Source: a virus (Duplodnaviria > Caudoviricetes). Taken from it: a stretch of DNA of 26,145 bases. Shown piece by piece: positions 1,354-22,380 of the stretch. Position 1 is the first letter of the stretch. Every line of letters begins with the position of its first letter. The translations under genes and the position numbers were made by a program. The stretch is from IMG/VR virus record IMGVR_UViG_3300017728_000093, positions 1 through 26,145 of that record, one strand, 5' to 3'. Below the pieces are notes generated by a model. The model did no database searches. It worked only from the letters and a program-made list of their open reading frames with translations, and had not been told where the DNA came from.

Positions 1354-4300
1354 ATGTCGAAAAAAAGACAAAACAGAAATACTAGTAAGTTTAAAAAAGC
1401 AGCGGCTTCTCAACGTGCGCGTGTTCCATTCCGTACCGGCGGTCCTTCAGATCGAAGGCGTCCTACAGCAGAAGAAAGGAAAGGGAAAACTACTAAAGAG
1501 ACTACTGATAATAAAATTACTGGGGGTGTAAAAACTACCGGTTCTACTAAAAGTACGTCTACTAAAGCAACAGCTGGTATTAAACCTACTAAAGAAACAG
1601 GAACAGCTTCAACTACAAAGCAAGAAACTCCTGATAATTCTCCAGCACAACAAGCTGCCGGACAACAAGCTGAAGCAGCTAAAGCAGCTGAAGCAGCAAG
1701 GCAAGCTGAAGCAGCTAAAGCAGCTGAAGCAGCAAGGCAAGCTGCTGCAACAAAAGCAGCACAAGAAGCTGCTGCAACAAAAGCAGCGGAAGCAGCAAGG
1801 CAAGCTGAAGCAGCAAAAGCAGCGGAAGCCGTAAGGCAAGCTGAAGCAGCTAAAGAAGCTGAAGCAACAAGACAAGCCGAAGCAACAAAAAAAGCACAAG
1901 AAACTACGGCTACAACTCAAGAAAAAACAAAAAAATTGCAAGAAGAAACAAGAAAAAAGCAAGCAGAAACAACTGCTCGTCAAGAGGCTGCAGAAGCTAG
2001 TGGTTTTGAAGAAGAAGCTCAGGCTACTCAAGCCGAAACAACAAAAAAAGCACAAGAAAATACGGCTCGTCAAGAGGCTGCAGCAAATAGCGGTGTTGAA
2101 CAAGAATCTAAAAATCAACAAGCCGAAACAGAAAAGCAAAGAACAGCAGCTGATAGTGCGGCACTGCCTCCTGACAGTAGTGAACTAACAGAAGGATCAC
2201 CAGATAGTTCTACTTCTAGTTATGAAGAAGGCAGGCGTCGGCAAGAAGACGCAAGGGCAGCAGCAGAAGAAACAACAACAGCAGCAACTGAAACAGCAGA
2301 CAATCAATCTTCAATGCCTGTGCGAGAAAATTTTGAGTCAGATCAAGAATATAATATTGCTTTAGCTCAGTTTTATACAAATAATTTAACGACTTCTTAT
2401 ACAAACACTTCTGTTCCTATGCCTACAGAAGCTCCTATAAACCTACAAACAACTCGGCCAGACCTTCCTGTACTAGAAAAAGTAGTGGCAGAAAAAGTAG
2501 AGGAGGGAGATCCTTCTGTTGTAGAGCAAATGGATGATACTGGAGATGCAGAAGTTACAGAAGCTGAAGCAACTGAAGCAGTATCTGTTGGTGAAGCAGA
2601 AACAACCACAGCCGGTGCGCCTCTTGAAACTGAAGCATCAACAATGCAAGCAGCAATTGCAGAAGGCGTAGCACCCGGAGAAGCAGTAACGGGCGAAGTT
2701 AGTGACGAAGCTCTTGCAAAAGTCGAAGAAGGTACAATAACGCAACCGGCTGTTGCTGCTACAAGAGATTCAGCGGCTGAAGAAGCAGCAAAGGCTGTTG
2801 CGGCACAACGACCAGAAGAACAAAAGTATGTTCAAGCCATTACATCTGATGAGCGATATAAAGTTATTGAGGCTGAAGATCCTGAAGTAGCTACTCGTGT
2901 TGCACAAACTATTTCAAAACGTGCAGAAAAAGATTTAATGGATATTGTCACGGGTGAAGGTGTTAATCTTGATGATATCCCAGAATTTAAACTTGCTGAA
3001 AAACGAACAGCGCAAGTTGCTGAAGCTCAACAAGGTATTGCACAAGAACTAGGTGATGCACCTTCTGTAGATCTTAAAGGTCGTCAAGCTATTCTTGGAG
3101 AAGCTCCTAAAGGCGATGCTGCTCAGATTGGCGGTATTCCTACTATGGAAGCGGCCTCTCGTCAGGCCATAACGGGCGAGGCTCGTAAAGCAGCTGCAGC
3201 AGACATGAATGCTGTTGTTGGTAATCTTCCTCCTGAAATTACAGCGGCAGTACTTGAAGATCCTCAAACTGTTGAAGCTCAGTTAGATACTGCGCCTGTA
3301 AGAGTAAAGGCGGCTGTAGCGGCTCTTCCACAAGAAGCTCTTGTTTCTACTCAGATGGAAGGTCTTCTTGCAGGAATGGAAGATGGTAAAATACCATTAT
3401 GGGCTAAACCTGCTGTTGATGCAATGAACTCTCAAATGGCTTCTAGAGGCCTCAGTACGTCCACTGTAGGGCGAGATGCACTTTTTAATGCTATCATACA
3501 GAGTGCGCTTCCAATCGCTCAGAGCAACGCTCAAGCGCTTCAGCAACGTGCTTCACAAAACCTTAGTAATGAACAACAGGCAAATCTTCAACAGGCGTCT
3601 CAGGTCATGCAACAACGCATGGCAAACCTTTCTAATCGTCAAACCGCTGCATCTCAAACAGCACAAATGGCGCAAGAAATAACTATTCGCCAAGGTGAGT
3701 TTGAGCAACAAGCTATACTAACAAGCGAGCAACAAGAACAACAAGTTCGTATGCAGAACATTCAGAATGCTCAACAACAAGCATCACAAGAGTCTGCACA
3801 ACGCCAACAAGTAGCAATAGCTAATTTAGATGCTGGCACTAAAATGGATCTTGCAAATTTAGAAGCTTTAAATTTAGCAAGCTCACAAAACTTAAACGCA
3901 GAACAACAGGCTCGATTAACAAACTATAATGCTACAGTTGCTAGAACTATGCGTCAAGCAGAACTTGACCAAGACATGGAAAAAGCTAACTTATCAGCAG
4001 AGCTTCAAATAGAGTTAAAAAATCTAACCGAAGAAAATGCTGCTTCTCGTGATACGATGACCGCAGAAAATCAAGAGCGATTAGCAAACTTAAATGTTTT
4101 AGTAGACTTTAAAAAGACTAATGCTGCACTTGCACAGCAGATGGATCTTGCAAACATGAATGCTGCACAGCAAACAGAACTTGCAAACTTAGCTGAAAGA
4201 GCAGCAACAGACTCAGCAAACTTTTCTGAGGCCAATCGTTTTAGGCTACAAGAGCTATCTACTGCGGCTAATGTTCTTTCACAAAATGCACAGCTTCGTC

Positions 4301-5394
4301 AGAATGCAGAAATGGCAAAGCTTTCAGCATCTGAAAAAGTTACACTTGCAAATTTATCAGCTAAGAATCAAGCAGATTCAGAATCTATGACAGCTGAAAA
4401 TGTTGCGGCGTTACAGGTTTATGAAAAGAAAATGCAAGCGGGGCAAGTTAACGCACAACTAGCACAGCAAATGGGACTTGCAAACCTTAACAACCAACAA
4501 GAATCTGCAATGTTTAATGCACAGATTGATGCTAATCTTGATATGGCTCAGTTCAACGCTGACCAACAAGCGGCTATGGCTAATAGTCAGTTCATGCAAT
4601 CAATGACCATGAAAAACTATGATGCTAAACAACAAAGCATTATGCAAAATGCATCAGCTATGGCTTCTATGGACATGGCAAATCTTGATGCTCGTACAAA
4701 AATTGCAGCACAGAATGCACAAGCATTTTTACAAATGGACATGGCTAACCTAAATAACGAACAGCAAATGGCCGTTATGAATCAACAACAGGCACAGCAA
4801 ACCATGTTGTCAAATCAATCGGCTGAAAATGCATCACGCCAGTTTAATGCAGCTAACGAACAACAAGCTGACCAGTTCATGGCTAGTTTAGCAGCTCAAG
4901 TAGATCAGTTCAATGCATCTCAAAGCAATAGCATGGAACAGTTTAATGTATCTGAAGGTAATCGCATTGCAGCTCAAAATGCTCAGAACCAAACACAAGT
5001 ATCTCTTGCTAACGCTCAAATGTCAACAGATATTAGTAAATTAAATGCTCAGATGGATCAACAACGTGAACAGTTTAATACTGCAAACAAACAAGCAATT
5101 GAGCAAGCAGACATTGCATGGCGACGACAGGCTAACACAATTAACACTGCTGCGGCTAATGCGGCTAATCAACAAAATGTTATGAATTCGTTTAACCTAG
5201 ACATGACAGAGCTTCAATATGTTTGGCAAGAACTTAGAGATAATGCAGCATATACTCGACAAGCTTATGAAGGCCAGCAGGATAGAGAAACTCGACTAAT
5301 AGCTACAGCTCTTGGCAATGAATCAGCAGCCAGTGGAGATAAAAATTCAAGCACAACATCCGCTCTTATGCGATTAATTCAGGGATATATCTAG
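1354..5394 (+). CDS. Very large repetitive virion protein (probable internal/ejection protein): basic N-terminus, Ala/Glu/Lys repeat stalk, acidic middle, 550-aa hendecad coiled coil
   Basis: 1346-aa ORF in the structural arm with a Gln/Asn/Ala/Met-rich, Pro-free C-terminal repeat half. Function is inferred. Confidence 0.8.
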   Translation: MSKKRQNRNTSKFKKAAASQRARVPFRTGGPSDRRRPTAEERKGKTTKETTDNKITGGVKTTGSTKSTSTKATAGIKPTKETGTASTTKQETPDNSPAQQAAGQQAEAAKAAEAARQAEAAKAAEAARQAAATKAAQEAAATKAAEAARQAEAAKAAEAVRQAEAAKEAEATRQAEATKKAQETTATTQEKTKKLQEETRKKQAETTARQEAAEASGFEEEAQATQAETTKKAQENTARQEAAANSGVEQESKNQQAETEKQRTAADSAALPPDSSELTEGSPDSSTSSYEEGRRRQEDARAAAEETTTAATETADNQSSMPVRENFESDQEYNIALAQFYTNNLTTSYTNTSVPMPTEAPINLQTTRPDLPVLEKVVAEKVEEGDPSVVEQMDDTGDAEVTEAEATEAVSVGEAETTTAGAPLETEASTMQAAIAEGVAPGEAVTGEVSDEALAKVEEGTITQPAVAATRDSAAEEAAKAVAAQRPEEQKYVQAITSDERYKVIEAEDPEVATRVAQTISKRAEKDLMDIVTGEGVNLDDIPEFKLAEKRTAQVAEAQQGIAQELGDAPSVDLKGRQAILGEAPKGDAAQIGGIPTMEAASRQAITGEARKAAAADMNAVVGNLPPEITAAVLEDPQTVEAQLDTAPVRVKAAVAALPQEALVSTQMEGLLAGMEDGKIPLWAKPAVDAMNSQMASRGLSTSTVGRDALFNAIIQSALPIAQSNAQALQQRASQNLSNEQQANLQQASQVMQQRMANLSNRQTAASQTAQMAQEITIRQGEFEQQAILTSEQQEQQVRMQNIQNAQQQASQESAQRQQVAIANLDAGTKMDLANLEALNLASSQNLNAEQQARLTNYNATVARTMRQAELDQDMEKANLSAELQIELKNLTEENAASRDTMTAENQERLANLNVLVDFKKTNAALAQQMDLANMNAAQQTELANLAERAATDSANFSEANRFRLQELSTAANVLSQNAQLRQNAEMAKLSASEKVTLANLSAKNQADSESMTAENVAALQVYEKKMQAGQVNAQLAQQMGLANLNNQQESAMFNAQIDANLDMAQFNADQQAAMANSQFMQSMTMKNYDAKQQSIMQNASAMASMDMANLDARTKIAAQNAQAFLQMDMANLNNEQQMAVMNQQQAQQTMLSNQSAENASRQFNAANEQQADQFMASLAAQVDQFNASQSNSMEQFNVSEGNRIAAQNAQNQTQVSLANAQMSTDISKLNAQMDQQREQFNTANKQAIEQADIAWRRQANTINTAAANAANQQNVMNSFNLDMTELQYVWQELRDNAAYTRQAYEGQQDRETRLIATALGNESAASGDKNSSTTSALMRLIQGYI
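1666..1902 (+). repeat. Coding tandem repeat, 36-bp unit (QAEAAKAAEAAR)
   Basis: caagctgaagcagctaaagcagctgaagcagcaagg occurs twice exactly (1666-1701, 1702-1737), followed by degenerate copies at 1738-1800, 1801-1836, 1837-1872 and 1873-1902. Confidence 0.95.
3526..5178 (+). repeat. 50 consecutive 11-residue (33-nt) protein repeats, Asn-phased
   Basis: Residues 725-1274 parse into 50 in-phase hendecads (e.g. NLDAGTKMDLA/NLEALNLASSQ/NLNAEQQARLT); Asn is at position 1 in 36 of 50 by manual count. Confidence 0.9.
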
Positions 5395-5445
5395 TAAACA
5401 TTTTAAATATAGTGTATACTAGAAAAAAATAGAATGGAGAAATAA

Positions 5446-6687
5446 ATGGGAATTATATCTAAAATCGGTAAGGGCATAAAAAGCGCTTTTAAAAAAATAG
5501 GTAAAGGAATTAAACGGGGAATAAAATCTGTTGGTAAATTTATGGACAAGATTGGCATTGTAGGACAAATTGGTCTTGCTATTTTGTTACCGGGAATAGG
5601 AGGTATGCTTGCAAAAGGCTTTAGTACTGCTTTTAGTGCAGTAACAGGCGCAATGACAGGATATGCTGGAATTGGCTCTAGCGTAATAAACGCTGCAGGG
5701 GGTTTTTTAAACGCTGCGGGAACAGTAGTAGGAAGGATGGGCAACGCTTTTAATTCTGTTACAGGAGCTATAAAAAATGTTGTGGGTGAAACCCTTAAGT
5801 TTGGTGCAAACAAACTAGGTCTCGGTGAGGTTGCTAGTAGTTTAGGAAGTACTTTTGGATCTCAAGGACTTACAGATCTTGGAACTAGTATTTCTAAAGG
5901 TTCTTTTGATAACATTACAAGTGCTTTTGGAGAAGGATTGACAAACATTACTGATAGTTTTAGTAATGTTTTTAATACTGAGTCTTCAATAGCAAAAAAT
6001 CTTAATATGGAATTTGATCCTTCAAATGTAGACGCTGCCGGAAAACCTATTAGTACAGCTTCTAGTGGTGTTTCTTTAGAAGACATGTCAACAGAAATAC
6101 AAGGTATTGATCCTAGTAAGTCTTTAGATCGTATGGTAGAAGGATATGAAGCACCTTCATTATTAGATAATAAACCTATTAGGACAGTAGCACAAGAAGT
6201 TGAAGCCAGTGCTTTTGCATCCGCAAGAGAACAGGCACTAAAGACGCCAAAGGCAGTGGGCGATAAAAACTTTGTTTTAGAGACAACCCAAGAAGTTCAA
6301 AAAGGCCTAGCAGAACAACTTCGTAAAAAGGCAGCCGATGTTAGGGGAGGGTTCACAGCATTCAAAGAAGATCCTTTAGGAGTTACTGTAGGTTATGGAG
6401 TAGACCAAATAAAAGAAGGTGTAGACGCTGGACTTCAGCAAGTTGGAATGTATGGAATAACAAACGCTGCAGGAGTTGATTTAGTACCCGATCAAATTCA
6501 ACAAAACATAAGTACTTATATTGCTCCGGGTGAAGCAGTACAGGTTCGACCAGCGGCACAAATAACACCAGAATACTTCACTGCAAATCAGTCTATATTT
6601 AATCAATACCCTTGGGGAGCGTCTTCAGCAGTTATAGATAGTAATTACTATCAAGATTTAAACACAACTATGCAGCGAATGGGGTAA
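5446..6687 (+). CDS. Probable ejection/pilot-type virion protein with cationic amphipathic N-terminus and Gly-rich hydrophobic segment
   Basis: 413 aa; MGIISKIGKGIKSAFKKIGKGIKRGIKSVGKF then IGIVGQIGLAILLPGIGGML; GGAG RBS upstream. Confidence 0.75.
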   Translation: MGIISKIGKGIKSAFKKIGKGIKRGIKSVGKFMDKIGIVGQIGLAILLPGIGGMLAKGFSTAFSAVTGAMTGYAGIGSSVINAAGGFLNAAGTVVGRMGNAFNSVTGAIKNVVGETLKFGANKLGLGEVASSLGSTFGSQGLTDLGTSISKGSFDNITSAFGEGLTNITDSFSNVFNTESSIAKNLNMEFDPSNVDAAGKPISTASSGVSLEDMSTEIQGIDPSKSLDRMVEGYEAPSLLDNKPIRTVAQEVEASAFASAREQALKTPKAVGDKNFVLETTQEVQKGLAEQLRKKAADVRGGFTAFKEDPLGVTVGYGVDQIKEGVDAGLQQVGMYGITNAAGVDLVPDQIQQNISTYIAPGEAVQVRPAAQITPEYFTANQSIFNQYPWGASSAVIDSNYYQDLNTTMQRMG

Positions 6688-6693
6688 GTAAAT

Positions 6694-7299
6694 ATGGATA
6701 TGAAATACGCTCAAGAAGCTTTAACGGGTGGAAGACCTATTCCGGGCCAGAGCCTAACTACCGATCCTTCAAATCCTACGCCTTATGAAAAAGCTCCAAA
6801 GTACACTTCTGTTCATGAAGCTACTCGAAGTATTTTTGAGCATTTTATAGACGCAGAAAACTATGTAGCTGTTATGGAAGTTTTGTCAGACGACGTTCCA
6901 ATCATGGATGTTGTTCAAGCTTTTCTATTTGGAGGGTTTCAAGAAGGAAAATGGAATCCTGATTTAATGCTTATGTTAGCAGAGCCTGTTGCTTATATTT
7001 TACTTGCTTTAGCAGAAAGAGCCAATATTGATCCTGTTATTTATAATGGTGAAAAGTTAGATGAGGCTGAAGAGCTTGCAATGATGGGAACAACTTTTCA
7101 AAAAGAAAGACTTAAAAATATGGAAGAGTTTTCTAAAGAGAAAATAGCTTTGCCTGAAGGTGTACTGCCCAGAGAAATTACAGAGCAAATTAAAACTATT
7201 CAACCTCCAGAAAGTTTATTAGCTAGACAGCCAGAAGAAAACACAGAAACAGGTGAAGAAAGCCTGTTAGCAGAGCCTGTTGTAGAGGAGCAAGTATAA
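6694..7299 (+). CDS. Conserved hypothetical virion-module protein
   Basis: 201 aa; RPIPGQSLT.DP..P.PYEK.P motif and G.WNPDLMLML.EP; acidic tail; TAATG overlap with the next gene. Confidence 0.8.
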   Translation: MDMKYAQEALTGGRPIPGQSLTTDPSNPTPYEKAPKYTSVHEATRSIFEHFIDAENYVAVMEVLSDDVPIMDVVQAFLFGGFQEGKWNPDLMLMLAEPVAYILLALAERANIDPVIYNGEKLDEAEELAMMGTTFQKERLKNMEEFSKEKIALPEGVLPREITEQIKTIQPPESLLARQPEENTETGEESLLAEPVVEEQV

Positions 7300-8882
7300 T
7301 GGCTATTCAAGAATTTGGACAATCTTTACTTTCTGATGCCCGTGAAAGAAATGAAAGAGAAAGACGACGAGAAAGAAAGCGGGAAGAAAAAGATCTTCTT
7401 TTAGGCATAGGAATGAAGGTTGCGGATTCAGCACTGACTAGTTATCAAAATAGAAAAACAAACGAATTTCTTAGAGATGAAGCGCTTTTAGCTCGTAATT
7501 TAAATTATAAAATGCGAGTAAAAAGATCTAGTGAAGATGTCATGGATATTGATGGTAATGCACAAGACCCTGATTATTTATACAATAAATTTTTACCAGA
7601 AACTTTAGCAGATGCCCAAGCAGGCACAGGTCAGTTAGCCAGTAGCCGACTTGTTATTAGTCTGGCTGAAATTGAAGCTCGTCGAAGGTCGGAAGAAAGA
7701 CTAAAGGAACTAACCGAAGATAGGGTTAAAGCCGCCAGATCCCTTGTATCTTCTTCAGATGGAAGTGAAACAGCTTATAGAGATGCTGTAATAGCTTCAA
7801 GACCTAGTGGAGGAATAAAGGGTGCAGTTAACTTTTTCGGAAATTTACTTACAGGAGGAACTGCTCACGACGTTGCGCTTACAACCGACATGTATAGAAA
7901 GTCTGAGGAGTATCAGTCTGAATTCAGACAAAATCCTACAGAAGCTCTTACTTCTACGCAACGAAGAGAAAGAGTAAAACAAAATGGGCATCTCCTTGCA
8001 AAAGGAAAAGTAGTTTATGATGATACGCCTGTATCAATAACCGCAACAGATCCTAATGATCCAACTAAAACCAAGACTGTATCAGCTTTTGTAGGTAAAA
8101 TAAATGGTGTTAATGTAGGATATAGAACCGTAGACGGCGAGGTTGTTAATCTTCTTTCGCCTGAACAAACAAAACGAAGAAATACAATTTCAAACATTGT
8201 GACTTCAGAACAAGCGAATCAAATTCGAGCAACAGCTTTAAGTATATTAAGCGAACAGCAAAACAAAGAGCTAAAAGATGTTTTTGTTTCTCTTTATGGA
8301 ACAGAACAAGACGACTCTTCAGACAAGGTCGCTATTAGGCGACAATTTTATGGTAATTTAGGGCAAAATGCAGGAATGCTATTAAGAGATTTTCAGATTC
8401 CAAACGCTGTATCGTATTCCCTTGCTGCTGAAATGGAAATACTTAGACACCAAATGTTAGCAGGCGGTAAAGAAGCAGCAAGATACAGCTTTGGAAGCCT
8501 TCCTGCTAAGAATACTGTAGTGGGTCTTGAGCTTGAAACAAACGCTGAATCTATTAGTCCTATACTAGCCTTAGCAGCTTTAGATTCTTTAGAAGAAAAA
8601 AATACTTTAGGTAGAAGCAAAGAGGCTTACGAGTCTTTTAGAACTTCTTTAGAAAATAATTTTGCAGGAGAAAGTGAAAACACCAAAAAATTCATAAGTA
8701 CTTTTATGTTTTTAGATGCTCCTACACAGTCTGACTTGTTAAAATGGATGGAAGGATATAAAACTTTTAATCAACCAAGAAACTACTTAGAAGGTAATCT
8801 TTCTATCATAGACACACTAATACAAAGCAGCAATGGCTTAAGTCGTTCCCCAACCCGACAAGATAATCGTTACAAAAGATAA
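7299..8882 (+). CDS. Probable internal virion protein (helical)
   Basis: 527-aa ORF between other large virion-type genes; R/E-rich N-terminal helix. No catalytic motif recognised. Confidence 0.7.
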   Translation: MAIQEFGQSLLSDARERNERERRRERKREEKDLLLGIGMKVADSALTSYQNRKTNEFLRDEALLARNLNYKMRVKRSSEDVMDIDGNAQDPDYLYNKFLPETLADAQAGTGQLASSRLVISLAEIEARRRSEERLKELTEDRVKAARSLVSSSDGSETAYRDAVIASRPSGGIKGAVNFFGNLLTGGTAHDVALTTDMYRKSEEYQSEFRQNPTEALTSTQRRERVKQNGHLLAKGKVVYDDTPVSITATDPNDPTKTKTVSAFVGKINGVNVGYRTVDGEVVNLLSPEQTKRRNTISNIVTSEQANQIRATALSILSEQQNKELKDVFVSLYGTEQDDSSDKVAIRRQFYGNLGQNAGMLLRDFQIPNAVSYSLAAEMEILRHQMLAGGKEAARYSFGSLPAKNTVVGLELETNAESISPILALAALDSLEEKNTLGRSKEAYESFRTSLENNFAGESENTKKFISTFMFLDAPTQSDLLKWMEGYKTFNQPRNYLEGNLSIIDTLIQSSNGLSRSPTRQDNRYKR

Positions 8883-8891
8883 GGAAAAACA

Positions 8892-11800
8892 ATGACTACT
8901 AAAATGATTAATCTTTTTGGAGAAGAGGCAGGAGTGCCATATTCTGATTTTTTTTCAGACGAAAAAGAAAAAAATGTTGTTAGTCCTCTTAGAAAAACTG
9001 TTCCTGACTATGTTAACCCCTTTAATTACGAACGCGTTACTCCTAAAGAGCAGCAATCTATAACAGAATTAGATACTGATCCCGTGCTTCTTGAAAAATT
9101 TAATAGAGTTATGGAATACTTAGGGGATAACAGTGCTTTTACTAATAGTGTTTTTGACCCTACAAGCACTATCTCTGAAACAATGCGCGACGACAACATA
9201 AGCATTGCAAAGCTTATTGATAAAACAGTAGCGTTTAAAGATGCTCCCGATAGTATAAAACAAGATTATGCTGATATTAAAAACAGCTGGGATGATGCAG
9301 GAAAAAAAGGCTTTACAGAATGGATGGATATGTTTCAAGACTACACTGTAGATATTGCAACTGATCCTGCCGTATTAGCAGGCATAGCAGGAACTTTTTT
9401 TACTGGCACAGCTAGCGCAGTTGCTGCTGGAGGCACTCAGCTTACTGCTCGGGCAGCTTTGGCTAATACACTTCGTCGTGCAGCAGCAGGGGCTGTAAAA
9501 ACAACAGGTGGTTCTGGATACAAAGGAACTGCTGTTAGAAGTGCCGCTGCAAGTGGAATATATGACATTGCAGGACAACACTTAGATTTAGCAATCAAAC
9601 GTCAAAAAGAGTATAGTCCCACACAAACAGCAATTACAGCAGCAATAGGTGGAGTAGCTGGACCTGCACTTGAAGCAGGAGTAAGAGCAAGCGCCCCTCA
9701 TTTTAAAAGGTTTCTTTTTGGAAAATCAAAAGTAAACCAACAAGCAAGCGAAGGAGTCTTTGAAGAAACTATAGATTTTAAAACAAGAGAAGATAGGGCT
9801 AGAGAAGCTTTTGAGGCCGCAGCAGAACAAGCTGAAAAAGGCGAAATGGGGTACTATACTCCTACGGGTCAAACTAAAGATTCTTTTCCAGCATTAATAG
9901 GTTTGCCCGGACGAGCAGCAAAAGTAGCGAAAGATCTTGAGACAAGAGTTATTGAAGGTCGTATTATTGATTTAGAAGAAGAAAACTATTCAATACTTGA
10001 TGATCTTGTAGATGATCTTGGAGGTGGTCAAGCTACTAAAGAGTTTGTTGTAGACGCTGTTAATGTAGCACAGAACCAACCAGATCCTGAAAAAGTAGCC
10101 GTTACGTTTTTTAATAAACTACACAGGTTTTCTGCAGGAGCGTCTTCAACCATGTTTTTTGGAAAAGCTTCTGGCATTTTATCTCCTTATCGTAAATATT
10201 CTGAAACAGCCAAGCAGCTTCAAGGTAAATTTTCAAGAGAGTTTAACAAAGTGTGGCGTGGTAATCAATTTAAAATTGAAGGAGATTTTGCTGAAGTACA
10301 ACAAAGATATAATGGTGAATTCTACACTACATATATTGATATTGTTGAACCCCTTTCCTATGACAAAGTTAAAGGTAAATTAAAAGATAATGTTAATGCT
10401 TCTTTAAGCATGGCAATGCGGGGTGTAGATTCTGATGTTGCAGGATTAGAGCCTGTATATGAAGCCGCTAGAAAAATGCAAGAATTATATTCTGATATTG
10501 GTGATCGACTTGTTGCAGCTGGAGTTATTGATAAAAAAGTAGATAACTATATTCCTCGTATGTGGAATAGAACGGCTATTGAAAAAAATCCAGATCGTTT
10601 TGCACAGCTTCTTGTAGATCAAGGAGAAGCAAATAATATAGCGGACGGTCGTAGAATTATGGAAGACTTATTAGAAAAACGCAACCAGCTCGACTCTGGA
10701 ACTGACGGACATTTTTTCTCAGCTAAACGAAAGTTTAATAATATTCAAGATGATTTTGTTTTTGAAGAGTTTTTAAATACAGATGTGTTAGGAACTTTAC
10801 ATAACTATACGCACCATGCAGCTAAGTCACTTGCTAAAAAAGAAGTGTTTGGTGTTAATAATATTAAAGAATTTGAAGCCAAGTGGATTAATCCTATTGC
10901 AGAAGATCACTATAATTCTACAGGAAAAAGCTTATCAAAAATTGAAAAATCGCTTATCATGAACTTGTATCGCAGCGCTACTGGTGAGGGTCAACAAAAC
11001 TTTGAATATATACAGACAGGCATGGACACGTATGGTTTAATGAATCGACTAGCTTACTTAGGAGGAGCAACTATTTCAAGTCTTACGGAAGTTTTTGTTA
11101 ATATAGCTGATGCGGGATTTGTAAAGAGTGTTAAAGGTTTTAATGATGCTCTTGAAACATCTTTTAAACTAGTAACAAAAGATACAGAAACAAAATTAAA
11201 AAATCAAATGGGTCTTACCGCTGCAGAAATTAAAAAAGAAATGTTTGAATTTAGTATTGCAGTAGATCAAGGAGTTTCTCAAATGGGAAACAGGCTTGCA
11301 GGAAATGATTTACAGTCCGATAGACTACAAGGAGTTAGCAACGGTTATTTTAAATTTATTGGCCTTGACCTTTGGACAAAGTTTGCACAAACCGTAACTT
11401 TTGCAACCGGCAAGCGTTTAATCATGGGGAATTTAGAAGAAGTTTCTGAATACCTTTCATCAGGAGCTAAAATTTCAAGTCGTATTCAAAATAAAATAGA
11501 TGAATTAAATGAGTTAGGAATTGATATTGAGGAAGGAACGTCTTGGCTTGGTTCAGGAGCAAACTTGCAAGACTCTTATTACAAGGAAATAAAACAAGCC
11601 GCTGCTCGTTATACTAATGATGTAGTGCTAATGCCTGATTCTATGGCATCAACACGACCTATGATGTATTCACACCCAAAAACTCAACTGGCATTTCAGC
11701 TTCTTTCATATCCAGCAGCCTTTACTAATGTTATTTTAAAAGGAGCAGCTAAAAAACTAACTAGAAACCCAAAACAAAATACAGCTAATGTTTTATTGTC

Positions 11801-12374
11801 TGGTCTTTTTATGATGGAGGGTCAACGAATAGTACAGTACCTTAAAACTGGAGGAAAAAGCGAAGAGGACAAAACTCCTTCTGAAGCTCGTATAGAAGCT
11901 ATGAAAAGGGTAGGCGCACCCGGTTTATTATTTCAACAAATTGACAGAGCTACAGAAACTGCTGGGTACACAGGAACAGTAACTCCGTTTTTAATTGCCC
12001 CGTTTGGTCCAGCAGGCTCTGATATAGCAGGCGTTGCTCAAGGAAGACCAGTGCAGACTTTAGGTACTAAGGCTCCTTTCTATTCTTTGTATGGTAATGT
12101 TGCAAAAATAACAGGGAACGAAGACGAGTATGAAGACTATAAACAATACTTTAAAGATTTAGACAGGACCGGCAGCGAAATTCTGCGAACTGATAAACCT
12201 ATTATGACTAGAGATTTATTTTCAAAGGGGGGTGTAGTGGAAGTACCTAATGCTCCAGAAGAGCCTGATGAGCGTATAGATAAAATGACAGGTCAGCCTT
12301 ACAACGAACAAGCTGGCCTTGCTTTTATTGACGAAGAAGATCCTAAGCCTGTATCACTGTTGTCTAAGGTATAA
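8892..12374 (+). CDS. Large internal virion/ejection protein (T7 gp16-like role inferred)
   Basis: 1160 aa; Ala/Gly-rich hydrophobic segment near aa 160-270; NYIPRMWN, ISSLTE and FQLLSYP motifs reminiscent of large podovirus ejection proteins; AAGGA RBS. Confidence 0.75.
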   Translation: MTTKMINLFGEEAGVPYSDFFSDEKEKNVVSPLRKTVPDYVNPFNYERVTPKEQQSITELDTDPVLLEKFNRVMEYLGDNSAFTNSVFDPTSTISETMRDDNISIAKLIDKTVAFKDAPDSIKQDYADIKNSWDDAGKKGFTEWMDMFQDYTVDIATDPAVLAGIAGTFFTGTASAVAAGGTQLTARAALANTLRRAAAGAVKTTGGSGYKGTAVRSAAASGIYDIAGQHLDLAIKRQKEYSPTQTAITAAIGGVAGPALEAGVRASAPHFKRFLFGKSKVNQQASEGVFEETIDFKTREDRAREAFEAAAEQAEKGEMGYYTPTGQTKDSFPALIGLPGRAAKVAKDLETRVIEGRIIDLEEENYSILDDLVDDLGGGQATKEFVVDAVNVAQNQPDPEKVAVTFFNKLHRFSAGASSTMFFGKASGILSPYRKYSETAKQLQGKFSREFNKVWRGNQFKIEGDFAEVQQRYNGEFYTTYIDIVEPLSYDKVKGKLKDNVNASLSMAMRGVDSDVAGLEPVYEAARKMQELYSDIGDRLVAAGVIDKKVDNYIPRMWNRTAIEKNPDRFAQLLVDQGEANNIADGRRIMEDLLEKRNQLDSGTDGHFFSAKRKFNNIQDDFVFEEFLNTDVLGTLHNYTHHAAKSLAKKEVFGVNNIKEFEAKWINPIAEDHYNSTGKSLSKIEKSLIMNLYRSATGEGQQNFEYIQTGMDTYGLMNRLAYLGGATISSLTEVFVNIADAGFVKSVKGFNDALETSFKLVTKDTETKLKNQMGLTAAEIKKEMFEFSIAVDQGVSQMGNRLAGNDLQSDRLQGVSNGYFKFIGLDLWTKFAQTVTFATGKRLIMGNLEEVSEYLSSGAKISSRIQNKIDELNELGIDIEEGTSWLGSGANLQDSYYKEIKQAAARYTNDVVLMPDSMASTRPMMYSHPKTQLAFQLLSYPAAFTNVILKGAAKKLTRNPKQNTANVLLSGLFMMEGQRIVQYLKTGGKSEEDKTPSEARIEAMKRVGAPGLLFQQIDRATETAGYTGTVTPFLIAPFGPAGSDIAGVAQGRPVQTLGTKAPFYSLYGNVAKITGNEDEYEDYKQYFKDLDRTGSEILRTDKPIMTRDLFSKGGVVEVPNAPEEPDERIDKMTGQPYNEQAGLAFIDEEDPKPVSLLSKV

Positions 12375-12376
12375 AT

Positions 12377-14239
12377 ATGATAGGACCATTTGTAAGATCT
12401 ATTGCAAAAGCAACAAATAATTCTTTGCGAGATGATTACGTAGAAGCAACCGCTGAAAAACTTAATACGGTTGTTCGTGATTTTGAAGGCTCACAAAATC
12501 CTTCAGATGAAATGCTTTATGATTTTGAAGACTATGTTGACGTGCTTACTCAATACACTGTTAAAAAAGATAATGCAGATTTAGAAGACGTGTTAGAGTT
12601 TGAAAGACTTAAAAGACTTGTAGATCCTAATCAAAGTTATCGTAATCAAATTTCATCTTCTTTATCAGACGTTAGGTCTTTAGTTAAAATTACAGACAAG
12701 TTTACAAAAGAAAGTAAGGCTCTTCCTGAAGAAGTAGCTCCTTTAGCTAAAGTGGCTGGAGATGCTTTGTTAGATGAAAGGAGTAAAGCACTTTCTCCGT
12801 TTGTGACAAAGGAAGCTAAACAAAAAATTGGCTCTAATGTCTTAAACGAACTATTAGAAGTAGATACATACAAACCTATTATTGAAGCTATTGCTAGGCG
12901 AATGCCAGAAAACCAAACAGTTGATGAGCTACAAGCAAGTGCAAAAGAACGGGCGCAGAATAAAGTAGATTTTACTAGAAACAGTGTTGAAAAGAAACCA
13001 CAGTTTAGAGCTACTACAAGTCACCATGACCTACCATACGACATTTCATTTGCTTACCCACGAGAGTTAGGGACGCATGTAGGGACGCTAGGACAAGCAA
13101 CATCTATTGCTGTTCAAGGCGTAAACCCTTATAGCGATATAGGGCGATACTTAGATTCTCGTCTAGCACCAACACAAAAAGCTGATGTAGATAGGTTTTT
13201 TTCTTCTCAAGAGATGGTTGAAATTAAAGACGTAGTAGATAAACCCATGAAAGCTTCAAGACCTTCTGCCATGAGTAAAGGTTATATCAATGTAAAGAAC
13301 CCTTTAAAGATTGATTATGACGTTAAGGAATGGAGTGCTGAATATTTTTTAGTAGACCAAGGTCAGAAAATTTATGATTCAATTGTAAAACAAGCAGGTA
13401 ATCTTGCCAGCCCTCAACTTAAAAAAGATTTTACAGATCTTATAAAAACTGCCCAAGAAATAACGGATACTGAATGGAAAAAAAGTTTAGGTTTAGATTC
13501 AGCAATGCGTATAAGCCTACAAAAAGTAGAGCTAAATTTTAAATTTCAAAAACTTCTGCAGCGTAATGGCTTTGATTCTGTCCGATATAAGAATGAAGTT
13601 GAAGCATCTCTGAAGGGGGAGCCTAAGTATTCTTATATTCTTTTTAAACCTGAGCAGTTCAAGTCTACAACCGCTAAGTCTTATGATAAGGGAGATCCAC
13701 GCTTTACATTTAATGAGGGCGGTCCTGTAGAGCGTAGCGAAAGTGTAATACCATTAAACATTAAAGCTTTTATTGGGGATCTGTTAGGTTACGACACACC
13801 TATCACTGAAAAACATTTAGACGAAGAAGAATATCAAAGCCTAGTAGAAATTGCTCGTCGTGCTAAAGAAGCAGGAAAAAGCGCTATTGAATATTCAGAC
13901 TATCAAACTCAATCAAAAGGTCAATCTCAGTATGCAGATGTTGGGGGCGGTGGCGGAAACCTTGATTTCTTTAAGAAAATATTTGATCCAAAGTATAGTT
14001 TAAAAACTACTTTAGGACAAGCTCAAATTGAAGAAGACAGTGAGGGAAATACAATTATTAAAGATCGTTATAATTTTAACAATGCTTCTGGTGATATGGA
14101 CGCTATTGATTTTATAAAAGGCGTTAAAAGTGCAGGGACTAACATATACGCACAAGCAAGAAATGTAGCCACTGCGTTTGGAAGTGCGCCCGGAGAAGGC
14201 AGCGAGGTTAAAATTAATTTAGGAAGATTAGACTCTTAA
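12377..14239 (+). CDS. Multidomain virion-module protein containing an ADP-ribosyltransferase-like (ART-PolyVal-like) domain
   Basis: 620 aa; FRAT...GTHVGT...GYINVKNPL...GFDSVRYKNEVE...SYILFKPEQFKS...YDKGDPRF, followed by a separate ~170-aa C-terminal domain. Confidence 0.65.
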   Translation: MIGPFVRSIAKATNNSLRDDYVEATAEKLNTVVRDFEGSQNPSDEMLYDFEDYVDVLTQYTVKKDNADLEDVLEFERLKRLVDPNQSYRNQISSSLSDVRSLVKITDKFTKESKALPEEVAPLAKVAGDALLDERSKALSPFVTKEAKQKIGSNVLNELLEVDTYKPIIEAIARRMPENQTVDELQASAKERAQNKVDFTRNSVEKKPQFRATTSHHDLPYDISFAYPRELGTHVGTLGQATSIAVQGVNPYSDIGRYLDSRLAPTQKADVDRFFSSQEMVEIKDVVDKPMKASRPSAMSKGYINVKNPLKIDYDVKEWSAEYFLVDQGQKIYDSIVKQAGNLASPQLKKDFTDLIKTAQEITDTEWKKSLGLDSAMRISLQKVELNFKFQKLLQRNGFDSVRYKNEVEASLKGEPKYSYILFKPEQFKSTTAKSYDKGDPRFTFNEGGPVERSESVIPLNIKAFIGDLLGYDTPITEKHLDEEEYQSLVEIARRAKEAGKSAIEYSDYQTQSKGQSQYADVGGGGGNLDFFKKIFDPKYSLKTTLGQAQIEEDSEGNTIIKDRYNFNNASGDMDAIDFIKGVKSAGTNIYAQARNVATAFGSAPGEGSEVKINLGRLDS

Positions 14240-14250
14240 GGAAAATAATA

Positions 14251-14676
14251 ATGCAAAGACTTATAGAAACTCTTAAAAAACACGAAGGTGTTAAATACTA
14301 TGTGTACAAAGACCATCTGGGTTATGAAACAATAGGCGTAGGACGCTGTATAAAGCGTGGTGTGGGCTTAGGACTAACACATGATGAAGTAGACTACCTC
14401 CTAATGAATGACGTACAGCGGTGTTTAGAAGAGCTTGACGGGGCGTTTGCTTGGTTCAAAGACTTGACTGAAGTTAGGCGGGAAGCAATGGTAAACTTGT
14501 GTTTTAATCTAGGGCTTACGCGACTCAAAAAGTTTGAAAATGCTTTAGCAGCAATGTCAATCCACAATTACGAAGAAGCAGCAGATGAGTTTTTAGACAG
14601 TCGATGGGCTACACAAGTTGGTCAACGTGCAGTAGAGGTAACAGAAATGATTCGTACTGGAGATATGTATGACTAA
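14251..14676 (+). CDS. Lysozyme/endolysin, glycoside hydrolase family 24 (T4-lysozyme-like)
   Basis: LKKHEG...YKDHLGYETIGVGR (E-x8-D-x5-T catalytic triad); NLCFNLG...F...L.A; DSRWATQVGQRA; AAGGA RBS. Confidence 0.93.
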   Translation: MQRLIETLKKHEGVKYYVYKDHLGYETIGVGRCIKRGVGLGLTHDEVDYLLMNDVQRCLEELDGAFAWFKDLTEVRREAMVNLCFNLGLTRLKKFENALAAMSIHNYEEAADEFLDSRWATQVGQRAVEVTEMIRTGDMYD

Positions 14677-14959
14677 GAAAAAAGACCCTAGACTAGAAAG
14701 AGCAGGAGTAAGTGGATATAACAAACCAAAGCGTACACCCAATCATAAAACAAAATCACATATCGTGGTGGCAAAAGAAGGCGACAAAATTAAAACAATT
14801 CGCTTTGGTCAAAAAGGTGCGAAGACTGCAGGCAAACCAAAGGCAGGTGAGTCAGCCGCAATGAAAGCAAAAAGGAAATCGTTCAAGGCTCGACACGCTA
14901 AGAACATAAAGAAGGGCAAAATGTCAGCGGCTTATTGGGCTGATAAGGCAAAATGGTGA
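14669..14959 (+). CDS. Small very basic phage protein (putative nucleic-acid binding)
   Basis: 96 aa, Lys/Arg-rich; K.IRFGQ...RKSFKARH...SAAYWA.K.KW pattern seen in small viral proteins; GGAG RBS inside the lysozyme 3' end. Confidence 0.82.
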   Translation: MTKKKDPRLERAGVSGYNKPKRTPNHKTKSHIVVAKEGDKIKTIRFGQKGAKTAGKPKAGESAAMKAKRKSFKARHAKNIKKGKMSAAYWADKAKW

Positions 14960-15163: not shown

Positions 15164-15349
15164 TTGGCCGCTAAAAAAACAAAATCAAAAGTAAACGAAG
15201 CAGGTAATTATACTAAACCTACTATGCGTAAACGCCTCTTCAATAAAATAAAGGCAGGCTCAAAGGGTGGCAAAGCTGGTCAATGGTCAGCTCGCAAAGC
15301 TCAAATGCTTGCTAAAGAGTATAAAGCTGCCGGAGGCGGCTACAAATAG
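15164..15349 (+). CDS. Basic protein, N-terminal half of a DUF5872-like protein
   Basis: TTG start with GGGGG RBS; NYTKP.MRKRLF.KIKAGSKGGKAGQWSARKAQMLAKEYK..GGGY. Confidence 0.8.
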   Translation: MAAKKTKSKVNEAGNYTKPTMRKRLFNKIKAGSKGGKAGQWSARKAQMLAKEYKAAGGGYK

Positions 15350-15503
15350 AACGCTGTTTGAGCCACAGTAATAAAAATAAAAGTATAAGCGCTGGTTGAA
15401 GCACTACAAAAATTAAAAGGTTAGCCAGCGCATAACCCATCCCCGTTACATCTCCTATTACTTGGAGAATGTACACACAATAGTTAAAGAGTTCATTTAT
15501 CAT
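15312..15503 (-). CDS. Small membrane protein, antisense to the surrounding + genes
   Basis: 63 aa; LFNYCVYILQVIGDVTGMGY.LANLLIFVVLQPALILLFLLLW followed by basic residues (a clean TM helix, positive-inside); fills the only sizeable gap in the + arm. The RBS is weak. Confidence 0.6.
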   Translation of the reverse strand: MINELFNYCVYILQVIGDVTGMGYALANLLIFVVLQPALILLFLLLWLKQRSICSRLRQLYTL

Positions 15504-15753
15504 GGCTTTAAAAAAATCCCAAAAATCGTTAAAGGCTTGGACAAAGCAAAAGTGGCGTACTAAGTCCGGTAAAAAATCTAGTGAAACAGGAGAGCGTTAC
15601 CTCCCCGCTAAAGCTATCAAGTCTTTGTCAGCTAAAGAGTATGCTGCAACAACCAAAAAGAAAAGAGAAGATACAAAAAAGGGCAAGCAACACAGCAAAC
15701 AGCCGAAGAAGGTTGCCCAGAAAACTAGGAAGTATAGATCTAAACGATCCTAG
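15502..15753 (+). CDS. Basic protein, C-terminal half of a DUF5872-like protein
   Basis: SQKSLKAWTKQKWRTKSGK.S.ETGERYLP.KAI..LS..EYAATT.KKR.DT.KGKQ.SKQPKKVA.KT. Confidence 0.82.
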   Translation: MALKKSQKSLKAWTKQKWRTKSGKKSSETGERYLPAKAIKSLSAKEYAATTKKKREDTKKGKQHSKQPKKVAQKTRKYRSKRS

Positions 15754-19240: not shown

Positions 19241-20097
19241 AGCAAGATCTCGTCAACTCGTGGGGGTGCCACGACTTTAGTAAAGTATGTTGGTCCGTTT
19301 GAATATGCGTATGCTTTAAGCCCCTCACCATTATTAGAGTCTGAGTAACATTCAAACTTGTAAGGGCAGTACGCACAACCAGAAGGAAGTTTCATGTTTC
19401 CTTTCTTACCTTCAGGTATAGGAGCATAACATCGTGAGGGTGGCGTGTCAACAGAAATCGCAGCTCTAACCTTCTTTATTTTGTCTTTTACATTCGGCTT
19501 CTCAAGATCGTCGGGACGATACAAACACAACTCACCGCTCTCTTTGTTGATAACAAGAAAGCCTCCTTCGTTTGTGTTCTCTGCCGTCTCATATCCTGAG
19601 AGCTGTGCTAGATATCCAAAGGGGTCGTTGTCAGCAAGAGTTCCGTTCCTAAACTTATTAAATGCAAACTTAGAAGCTGTCTTAACGTCCACTACCTCAC
19701 CGTTAATCTTACAATCCATATGGCCTTTGATGCCAGACACGTCTATTTCTTTTTGTTCTGATGTAACCTCGTGTCCCGTCATGCGGACTAACATCAAGAC
19801 AATCTCCTCTAGAAGATGTCCATAAAGAAATTTGATTTGTGTTGCACCGCTAATGGATCGGGCGGTAGAAGGCGTTTTACTTTCATACCACAACTGTCGT
19901 AGGGGTCTTCCGATGTTAGACATCCGCAGGGTAAACTCTGCTTGAGGATCTCGTGGTGTAGCCCAAGACAAGATGCTTTCTTTAATACGGACAAGAGTAT
20001 CATCCAGCTCTGTCTCATCAATATTAAGTGGCTCACCGGCTGACAAGCCTTCAAGCCTTCCATATATATCCTGTATTAATGTATCTAAAGTATTCAT
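19237..20097 (-). CDS. PD-(D/E)XK exonuclease, Cas4/RecB-like phage type
   Basis: RMSNIG..RQLWY, GHLLEE, GHMD...VVDVKTAS, Y.AQL..Y and C-terminal CAYCPYKFEC. Confidence 0.85.
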   Translation of the reverse strand: MNTLDTLIQDIYGRLEGLSAGEPLNIDETELDDTLVRIKESILSWATPRDPQAEFTLRMSNIGRPLRQLWYESKTPSTARSISGATQIKFLYGHLLEEIVLMLVRMTGHEVTSEQKEIDVSGIKGHMDCKINGEVVDVKTASKFAFNKFRNGTLADNDPFGYLAQLSGYETAENTNEGGFLVINKESGELCLYRPDDLEKPNVKDKIKKVRAAISVDTPPSRCYAPIPEGKKGNMKLPSGCAYCPYKFECYSDSNNGEGLKAYAYSNGPTYFTKVVAPPRVDEILL

Positions 20098-20633
20098 TCT
20101 GATTCCAATTTAACTTGATTTATAATATTACGAGCTTCTTCTGTTGAGCATTGAAACCACTCGCCTTTTTGTTCGAACCTTTCAGCTAAGATTGTATGTG
20201 CCTTAGCTTCTGAAGCTCGACGGTTACTAACTTTACAATAAGACACTAACTCAAAATCACGAAAAGGGCTAGAAGTTTGATAGTTTTTTAATCTATCTGT
20301 TGCATCTACAGCCATTCCAACCTTTACCCACCCCTCAAATGCAGGGTTGGTTATAACATAAACCTGTCCTTCACTGGACTTTTTGTAATTCTTTAGTGAG
20401 CTAAAAGCTGCAGCCTCAAAACTTTTATACCGTCCGGGCTTGTGTAGGGGGTGTGAAGTAGGAATGTACTTACTGTCAACCCACATTCGATTTGTGTTTT
20501 TATTTATGTGAGCCTTTAAAGTTCTTTTCCCACCGTCTTTTGCGCCAACATAAAAATATTTTCCGTCTTCTTCAATAATATTTTTACAGTAATTCATTGT
20601 TAGTTCTTTAATATATTCTTCAGTGTGTTTCAT
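20094..20633 (-). CDS. GIY-YIG superfamily (T5orf172-like) nuclease, possible free-standing homing endonuclease
   Basis: GQVYVITNPAFEGWVKVGMA.D..DRL..YQTSSP...E..AH..L.......EWF. The start is at 20633 or 20651; both overlap the polymerase end. Confidence 0.8.
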   Translation of the reverse strand: MKHTEEYIKELTMNYCKNIIEEDGKYFYVGAKDGGKRTLKAHINKNTNRMWVDSKYIPTSHPLHKPGRYKSFEAAAFSSLKNYKKSSEGQVYVITNPAFEGWVKVGMAVDATDRLKNYQTSSPFRDFELVSYCKVSNRRASEAKAHTILAERFEQKGEWFQCSTEEARNIINQVKLESE

Positions 20634-22380
20634 ACCAGTTGTTTCCGACATTATATTCTCCCGTTAAACTGCACTTTAAGTTAAAGTCATTACCGGCCTT
20701 CTCGATTGCAGCAATACCCAGCTCACCAACTCTATCTGCTACATCCTTGTGTGCTTCGATCTGCCACTCATCGTGGACGTTAGCTACAAAGTGTGCATCA
20801 AGATCCTTGATAGATTCTTGAAGGTTAATCACTGCTTGCTTCATAACAATAGCACCAGCACCTTGCAGCAAAGTATTTAACGCTGCGTGTTCCGACCGAA
20901 CAAATAACTTACGTTTGTCCAGTCCCTTGAGGTATCCTCTTCGAGCCGCTCCCGCAACTCTGTCTTTAAGATTTTTAAATGCAGGGAGATTATCGAAGAA
21001 AGATTGTCTAAGTCTTCCACCATCTTTTGCGTCTCCTCCAACCACTGAACCAAGTTTAGCATCTCCTGCTCCGTACAAGAGTGCATAGATGAAAGTTTTT
21101 GCCTGAGGTCTTGATTCAAGTCCCGCAGCATTTTGATTTGCTGTGTGTATGTCTCCGTTGAGAAGTTCATAAGTAAAGCCCTCGTCGTTCATGTAGTGTG
21201 CTAACATTCTTAGTTCAAGTCCACTGGCATCAATACCTACCAAGCGATACCCGTCGTCTACAACCCAACACTGCCGACACTCTTTACCGTATGGGCTACT
21301 TGTACTTGGAACCTGTGCCATGTTAGGACTTCTGTGTGTCATCCGTCCTGTCACTGCACCATTAGTATTTACAAAACCGTGAATGCGTCCGTCGTCTCCA
21401 AGCTCTTTGAACCAAGAGTTTATTTGTGCAATACGCTTTTGAAGCATGAGATACTCAGCAATGATTGCAGCCTCAGGTATGTTTTTTACTTGCGATAAGA
21501 CTTTCTCATCAACAATTGGCTGTCCCGTAGGCGTAAACTTTTTAGGCTTCCAGCCAAACTCCAAGAGATATTCTCCAATTTGTTTCCTAGAGCCAAGATT
21601 AAAAGGTTCAGAATCACAGCGAATAAGACGCTTGTCTGGATCTTTACTCGCCTTCTCATACTCTTCATCAGATAGCCGGACCTTCCTTGTTTCTTTGTGG
21701 ACTTGCGCCATCTTAGAAAGCTTACCTGCTTTGGTAAAAGTAGGGACAAGTTCCATAGATGTCTCACGGGGCTTGAATGTTTTATGTACTTCTTTTTCTG
21801 CTTGAGAAAGCTTGCCTGTCAGTTCCGCTAGTAGCTCCATTGCATGTTGTTGATTAAGCTTGAAGCCTTTATCTCGCTGTGCATTTAAGATTCGATACAC
21901 GCTATGTTCTAAAGTAACTGAGGCAGGACCAAAGCCCGGAAGCTCTGCTGTTGTTAGATGTCTATAAACTTTATAGTTGAGAGATACATCTTGCTTACAA
22001 TACTTCATCATCTCTGGTGTATAGTATTCAAAGTTATCATACTCAATCTTGCGATGTCGTAGCCTGTATCCCCACCCCTCTAGAGCATGACCACCCTCAC
22101 GAGCAGGATTGAACAGTCGAGAAAGAACAAGTGTATCTACAATTTTAATACTACCGTTGTCCAGATTAACGCCTGTTAGTTTCTCGATGACGGGAATGTC
22201 ATAACCAAGAATGTTGTGGCCGATAAGTTTGGTTGCATTTTGTAGAAGACTTATTCCTTTGTCAATACATTCGGGACCATACTCGTAAAACTTTCCGGTC
22301 TCTGTATCCATAGCAACTATACAAAACATCTTGGTCGGCTTAAGGCCGTCAGCTTCTATATCAAAAACATAAGATGTCAT
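20620..22380 (-). CDS. polA: DNA polymerase family A with 3'-5' exonuclease (T7 gp5-like)
   Basis: ExoI FDIEAD, ExoII GHNILGYD, ExoIII YCKQD; TGRM; motif A DASGLELR; motif B RPQAKTFIYALLYG; motif C VHDE. Confidence 0.97.
   Translation of the reverse strand: MTSYVFDIEADGLKPTKMFCIVAMDTETGKFYEYGPECIDKGISLLQNATKLIGHNILGYDIPVIEKLTGVNLDNGSIKIVDTLVLSRLFNPAREGGHALEGWGYRLRHRKIEYDNFEYYTPEMMKYCKQDVSLNYKVYRHLTTAELPGFGPASVTLEHSVYRILNAQRDKGFKLNQQHAMELLAELTGKLSQAEKEVHKTFKPRETSMELVPTFTKAGKLSKMAQVHKETRKVRLSDEEYEKASKDPDKRLIRCDSEPFNLGSRKQIGEYLLEFGWKPKKFTPTGQPIVDEKVLSQVKNIPEAAIIAEYLMLQKRIAQINSWFKELGDDGRIHGFVNTNGAVTGRMTHRSPNMAQVPSTSSPYGKECRQCWVVDDGYRLVGIDASGLELRMLAHYMNDEGFTYELLNGDIHTANQNAAGLESRPQAKTFIYALLYGAGDAKLGSVVGGDAKDGGRLRQSFFDNLPAFKNLKDRVAGAARRGYLKGLDKRKLFVRSEHAALNTLLQGAGAIVMKQAVINLQESIKDLDAHFVANVHDEWQIEAHKDVADRVGELGIAAIEKAGNDFNLKCSLTGEYNVGNNWYETH

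Follow-up and report, generated by a model that had tools for sequence, protein, structure and literature searches.

The DNA analysed here (the window, 26,145 nucleotides, positions 1 to 26,145 of IMG/VR record IMGVR_UViG_3300017728_000093) is part of a podophage-like genome. Its plus strand carries virion and lysis genes, and its minus strand encodes a primase-helicase, a family A polymerase and a class II ribonucleotide reductase. Our subject is a short peptide, hereafter the tag, which occurs as R-x-x-F-x-x-G-G in three large plus-strand proteins, and a small domain encoded beside the portal gene that may read it. The three peptides, which had been reported in a first-pass annotation of this DNA, are all present and in frame (Table 1), and are the sole strict matches in the six frames. 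They occupy residues 23–30, 1107–1114 and 442–449 of the 1346-, 1160- and 620-amino-acid (aa) proteins, respectively.

The 1346-aa protein found no match in Pfam and PHROG searches; its gene follows the tail and holin genes, a position that suggests an ejection role. The core of the 1160-aa protein is 23–24% identical to virion or particle proteins of LUZ24-like phages, which supports a location in the particle. Residues 296–434 of the 620-aa protein resemble the ART-PolyVal family (E = 1e-3, short of the Pfam cut-off).

Table 1 Features of the window and the portal-adjacent gene (ORF, open reading frame; cut positions are predictions)
Feature	Position	Strand	Basis or remark
1346-aa Ala/Gln/Asn-rich protein with basic N-terminal leader; putative ejection (internal virion) protein	1354..5394	+	ORF; homologues at the same gene position in relatives
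Tag 1, closes the basic leader	1420..1443	+	Predicted cut Phe26/Arg27 (bases 1431/1432), placed by analogy with T5 pb2
Three syntenic genes (413, 201 and 527 aa), putatively of the same ejection cassette; no clear tag	5446..8882	+	Synteny in relatives
Possible weaker tag, Met for Phe, in the 527-aa protein	8445..8468	+	Looser pattern search
1160-aa protein, made up of an ejection-protein core (about 1,060 aa), a linker, tag 2 and a 50-aa acidic module	8892..12374	+	PHROG 7348 and 6958, 'virion structural protein'
Tag 2	12210..12233	+	Predicted cut Phe1110/Ser1111 (bases 12221/12222)
620-aa protein: ADP-ribosyltransferase-like region, tag 3, 165-aa C-terminal module	12377..14239	+	Profile match
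Tag 3	13700..13723	+	Predicted cut Phe445/Asn446 (bases 13711/13712)
61-aa basic protein with C-terminal tag-like K-A-A-G-G; possible small cargo	15164..15349	+	Profile score
Portal-adjacent 342-aa gene	G001:40740-41768 (outside window)		Between portal and scaffold; core of some 55 residues with three tags around it

Conservation in orthologues carries the case for the tag. Fifteen loci, several of them near-duplicate pairs, encode relatives of the 1160-aa protein at 34–100% identity; one (L001) is essentially the same phage, and counts are over the other 14. At site 2, Gly-Gly is present in all 14 and Phe or Tyr precedes x-x-G-G in 13, with Arg at the first position in only seven. At site 3, Gly-Gly is kept in 9 of the 12 loci that have the region (a single Gly in two, displaced in one) and Arg in 11. 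At site 1, x-x-G-G closes the basic leader in all seven loci that include the N terminus. The proposal of a peptide-level signal stands, but we dropped the strict R-x-x-F consensus, as Arg is frequent and not required. The fuller form is [R/K]-x-x-[F/Y/M/K] followed by small-x-G-G-x-[V/I/L/M]. The Met-form tag in the 527-aa protein is retained only in the two closest members of a comparison restricted to near relatives.

The tag sits at the joints of modules. The three proteins had been called unrelated; in 10 of the 14 relatives, however, the 1160-aa and 620-aa proteins are halves of a single ORF of 1,660 to 2,323 aa (two of these are truncated by the end of the locus). In the window, a stop and a restart two bases on (12374–12377) split this polyprotein, a split common only to the closest relatives L002 and L003. 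The modules that follow site 3 differ among the eight such proteins scanned, with LysM in five, a pesticin-type lysozyme in one and the 165-aa module in the window, in keeping with the modular marking first suggested. In relatives, tags are also found 4–5 residues from stop codons and at the N termini of small basic proteins. The tag is real and very probably functional.

Statistics from the window add little to this. The strict pattern is observed three times against 0.065 expected from composition shuffles (P about 5e-5), but it was picked after the fact, and a look-elsewhere control (any two shared positions before Gly-Gly in at least three proteins) is matched by 2,885 of 3,000 shuffles (96%). 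The window alone therefore holds no more than chance supplies, and we dropped window statistics as proof; it is the orthologues that go beyond chance. The motif had not been noticed in the replication-arm proteins, and this is borne out: the 19 minus-strand ORFs of the window have no match, and in a near-identical fuller genome (G001, a 47,416-base record containing L001) the virion-gene strand has 7 matches in 10,601 aa and the replication strand 0 in 4,731 aa.

A string of this kind could serve as a flexible hinge or be left over from module shuffling, with nothing that reads it. It does sit in low-complexity linkers, where Gly-Gly is common, and the failed look-elsewhere test fits. However, conservation is position-specific at 34–44% protein identity despite variable flanks, copies at termini need no hinge, and counts fall to chance level in phages that lack the portal-adjacent domain described next; we consider a hinge highly improbable.

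The gene order in G001 is terminase, portal, the 342-aa gene, a likely scaffold and capsid; the slot between portal and scaffold is the usual one of a prohead protease. The core of the 342-aa protein resembles tape-measure PHROGs (E = 3e-9) and, as a mixed profile, the PDB sequences 8zdo_S, 8rk3_A and lambda gpH (E = 3e-35, 7e-15 and 6e-4; 9e-6 for gpH in another comparison). As a single-sequence query against solved-structure sequences it reaches E = 3.7e-6. It matches 406 phage records; among the matches listed, most are tape-measure proteins and the copies of HTVC103P/104P/115P are closest. By similarity it belongs with the C-terminal A-x-G-G ... G-E-F-V domain of tape-measure proteins (lambda gpH, JBD30 gp46 and gp16 in PDB 8zdo), which has no Pfam family and comprises 11,054 clusters at 50% identity. 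The portal-adjacent domain is 72% identical to copies of the HTVC103P/104P/115P type, and the G001 portal is 58–60% identical to those of the same phages and sister to that of HTVC103P on a portal tree. In sequence, portal and portal-adjacent gene are closest to HMO-2011/HTVC103P-type marine podophages.

Copies of the domain in prophage tape-measure proteins begin with A-x-G-G and are followed by F-A-x-G-G-x-V, so that two tags bracket them. Among strings located through the domain, all 72 distinct ones have Gly at position three past the predicted cut, and 67 have Ala at position one. The podophage copies depart from this pattern: the opening strand is not intact, its first Gly being replaced by Glu, Ala, Asp or Ser. 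Their portal-adjacent domain has intact tags 67 residues ahead of it and immediately behind it. Across 144 family members there are 600 distinct Gly-Gly sites, 46% of which have Arg or Lys four residues before the predicted cut.

Co-occurrence across genomes links the domain to tags on other proteins. The sample comprised 20 genomes: G001–G003 plus 17 named phages picked by their portal or core matches (HTVC103P without its first 5 kb, Rollin without its last 1.3 kb). A tag profile was trained on the 600 sites, and the domain protein itself was excluded from counts. The 11 domain carriers have 27 matches vs 9.6 expected, and the 9 non-carriers 6 vs 8.0 (Mann–Whitney P = 0.0007). Within G001, the profile ranks two of the window sites only 8th and 9th of 86 Gly-Gly sites, below threshold, with site 1 outside the top 14; the K-A-A-G-G of the 61-aa protein is fifth, at 4.4 bits. 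The portal tree, built by a quick method from 19 rows without Pa223, places phiM6 within the carriers; this phage lacks both the domain and tags.

HTVC033P has a large portal-adjacent gene (W01 44472–46109) with one tag-like string, in which a detectable domain was not found; its reader has possibly diverged or been lost. Another of its proteins (W01 33940–35733) starts with a tag-like string.

As one of two possible roles of the motif, the first-pass annotation had put forward cleavage after the two glycines. The only mapped cut, that of phage T5, lies elsewhere. By intact mass, T5 pb2 is cut after R1127 during maturation, the products being pb2* and pb2C (PMC10038345; Linares et al. 2023), and in the pb2 sequence R1127 directly precedes A-E-G-G. 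The string R-A-x-G-G is retained in T5 and in the four of five T5-like loci whose translation covered the site. The accessible text of that paper takes the segment after the cut as a muralytic metallopeptidase motif and names no sequence rule. The cut of pb2 precedes the same small-x-G-G-x-hydrophobic string as in the tag; pb2 differs in being a tail and not a head protein, in having a single site and in the Arg just before the cut. Sites 2 and 3 of the window fit this string, whereas at site 1 the first residue is Arg and the sixth is not hydrophobic.

Lambda gpH is processed to gpH* and gpHC, of about 78 and 14 kDa, with site and catalyst stated to be unknown (PMC12617516, 2025, available sections). 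Two aromatic-A-T-G-G strings, at 733 and 778, flank its homologous domain, and a cut at the first, before A734, would give computed masses of 79.8 and 12.5 kDa, in rough agreement. Here the domain would act in cis, and in a tail protein. In phage crAss001, the domain in C1/gp45 that is bound to the portal is resolved over residues 425–552, in 12 copies on the portal wing, and a tail-bound piece over 214–245, about 420 Å away (Bayfield et al. 2023, PMC10172136, available text; PDB 7QOG and related; Pfam PF25725). Tag-like strings lie at 207, 261, 330, 425, 560 and 826 of gp45, residue 425 being the A of A-F-G-G; orthologues are variable before 425, and Gly-Gly follows in 27 of 27 distinct strings. 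C1 is like the tagged proteins a head cargo with several A-x-G-G strings. Unlike the reading proposed here, it has been treated as one uncut chain (the main text and supplement 2 of PMC10172136, as available, are without cleavage terms), and its domain is longer than the portal-adjacent one. Two C1 orthologues of crAss-like phages (L232:2995-3360 and L234:2995-3360) have in-frame stops where Gln is expected, which suggests stop-codon reassignment.

Because the T5, crAss001 and lambda cases all point to the bond before x-x-G-G, and not to the one after it, we argue by analogy that this bond is likely to be cut, the T5 site being the only one mapped. Conservation of C1 and of the tape-measure strings starts at the same bond. 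Cleavage after Gly-Gly and ubiquitin-like conjugation were rejected as alternatives, since conservation begins before x-x-G-G and runs past it and the scans found no JAB or E1-like family. The available parts of PMC10713586 and of bioRxiv 10.64898/2026.02.24.707460 gave no further cleavage site.

Taken together, these observations lead us to a tentative reading, on which we are close to evenly divided: the tag marks proteins that are likely packed in the head, is cut before x-x-G-G during assembly and is read by the portal-adjacent tape-measure-type domain. The portal-adjacent protein would enter the prohead at the portal and bind the tags of cargo proteins in trans, at a site that would be open since the first Gly is missing from its own first tag-like strand. 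The bond before x-x-G-G of a bound tag would then be cut as the particle assembles. The basic leader, the core of the ejection protein, the ADP-ribosyltransferase-like region and the modules that bind or degrade the wall would each come free as a piece of their own for ejection. That the domain itself is catalytic, through an invariant Asp, Ser and Glu, would be the weakest step. A broader form of the idea, which we hold to be unlikely, takes this domain of about 55 residues and of an unnamed family to be a peptidase, or a module that processes itself, with its cut before A-x-G-G. It would act in cis in tape-measure proteins and would have moved beside the portal in crassviruses and in marine podophages, which are abundant, there to load and cut any tagged protein.

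The tag may instead be a docking strand that is never cut, completing or swapping into the small domain, so that a portal-adjacent hook recruits whole cargo proteins into the prohead. Tags at extreme termini would work as handles without a cut, the two tags that bracket tape-measure domains are as in strand exchange, and the co-occurrence data fit equally well. In the sections available, C1 is described as binding the portal wing (PMC10172136) and a hook model has been put forward for the JBD30 region (PMC11445458). Against docking stand the reported cut of T5 pb2 at a tag-like string (PMC10038345, in part) and the fragment masses of lambda gpH, which fit a cut at the tag (PMC12617516, in part). 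The 12 copies of crAss001 gp45 have pieces about 420 Å apart, either side of the portal and each between tags, which cutting would explain more easily. We regard an uncut docking strand as doubtful.

Alternatively, the cut before x-x-G-G could be made by a protease of the host or by a phage enzyme that escaped recognition, with the portal-adjacent protein being only tagged cargo or substrate. The gene is long in HMO-2011-type phages and has passenger domains in it, a cell-wall hydrolase among them, and homologues of the protein carry ART-PolyVal; with such passengers, the protein may itself be cargo, in addition to being the reader or in its place. AlphaFold2 models of the domain contain no catalytic fold, and a 1973 T5 paper mentions host involvement in tail-protein cleavage in its title (as cited in the available text of PMC10038345). 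However, tag enrichment follows the portal-adjacent gene across genomes, the tag is present in phages of very different hosts, and known peptidase families were not found in the G001 ORFs scanned; a separate protease is in our view distinctly improbable.

Several results weigh against the proposal of a cut tag read by the portal-adjacent domain. A literature search listed no virion proteomics for this phage or its cultured relatives. Pfam and PHROG scans found no known peptidase family in the portal-adjacent protein or the other G001 ORFs scanned, with no match to a prohead protease of the HK97, T4, ClpP or S49 type or to a zincin MPTase. At about 55 residues, the domain is small for a protease. 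In two AlphaFold2 runs (146 and 71 sequences), most of the core has a predicted local distance difference test (pLDDT) score near or below 50, with helices only and no strands, and a Foldseek search with the second model of the domain gave no match. The part of gp46, JBD30's tape-measure protein, that spans residues 1022–1066 has been modelled as an anchoring hook, with no peptidase motif found (PMC11445458, available text). It belongs to the same family as the portal-adjacent domain (PDB 8rk3_A, the match given above) and starts at F1019-A-S-G-G; the difference is that PMC11445458, in the sections available, proposes a speculative cut after 1066 and no link to cargo tags.

The comparisons that place the cut have weak points too. 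Profile comparison of T5 pb2C with the portal-adjacent domain is not significant (E = 0.12–0.15), nor is that with crAss C1 (E = 0.14–0.39 in hhalign), and the domain has no PF25725 match in Pfam at E = 10. The link to crAss phages rests on the motif and on crAss_CARG1 as nearest family in the ESM Atlas (score 0.82, a lead only), and the modelled crAss domain would begin near its first strand even if uncut. The reported masses of the lambda fragments are gel estimates. The first residue of cargo tags is variable, and it is Ala in the domain-linked copies.

Co-occurrence is weaker when a regular expression replaces the profile (carriers 44 vs 21.2, non-carriers 20 vs 19.4; P = 0.018). Two carriers, CRP-3 and G002, are then low, and Pa223 and MQM1, which lack the domain, have 4 and 6. 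CRP-3 carries the domain with only 0–1 other matches. On the portal tree, presence of the domain needs three label changes, that is, two or three independent events.

Phages are known to tag head proteins in other ways. In T4, a capsid targeting sequence brings cargo into the prohead, after which the prohead protease gp21 cuts it, and phiKZ-like phages have prohead proteases that act likewise; such tags lie at the N terminus or are acidic, and their proteases come from known families. The present tag differs in that it would work at any position and in that such a protease was not found in the scanned ORFs. Polyvalent proteins (Iyer et al. 2017, PMC5512222, available text) are alike in being modular packaged proteins with an ART-PolyVal-like region and proposed processing; in contrast to those with an MPTase, no zincin peptidase was detected here in the scanned ORFs. 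The word 'glycine' is absent from the main text of that paper as available. A full-text literature search, with most subscription journals outside its reach, found no paper describing the motif or the portal-adjacent gene as reader. What is added here is the gene in the portal–scaffold slot, the co-occurrence of tags with it and predictions at the level of residues.

How podophages choose and prepare the proteins that they inject is largely unknown. If the proposal is true, one rule predicts new N termini at residue 734 of lambda gpH, residue 425 of crAss001 gp45 and residues 27, 1111 and 446 of the 1346-, 1160- and 620-aa proteins. A cis-acting domain would explain the maturation cuts of lambda gpH and T5 pb2, and the ejection model of crAss001, in which the head and tail parts of gp45 are now taken as one chain, would be recast. 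A portable tag with its reader could also serve to load proteins into phage heads.

Some further observations concern the modules and neighbours of the tagged proteins. The 50-aa acidic module after tag 2 (12222–12371) shows good conservation in 8 of the 11 relatives aligned, and another sequence takes its place in the other 3; the module belongs to no known family, and in fused forms another tag closes it. The 165-aa C-terminal module (13739–14236) lies at the far end of relatives' polyproteins (46–54% identity) and has no Pfam family; an ESM Atlas lead to colicin M (0.84) is under the threshold of the tool. In G001, the capsid gene is followed by a gene (L018:7871-8578) whose 235-aa product is of low complexity, rich in Pro and Arg, and tagged near the C terminus; the two complete relatives have no long ORF at this place, between the capsid and adaptor genes. 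At the place of the 527-aa gene, L008 has a 1,356-aa ORF (L008:3602-7669) with no separate 200-aa gene before it, a possible fusion or insertion. An endonuclease of the T5orf172/MUG113 type (20094–20651) overlaps the end of the DNA polymerase gene, differs in length in L003 and G003 and is likely a mobile element. Finally, three small, very basic proteins (14669–14959, 15164–15349 and 15502–15753) are possible DNA-binding cargo, and homologues of the first carry an added N-terminal tag in L008 and L014.

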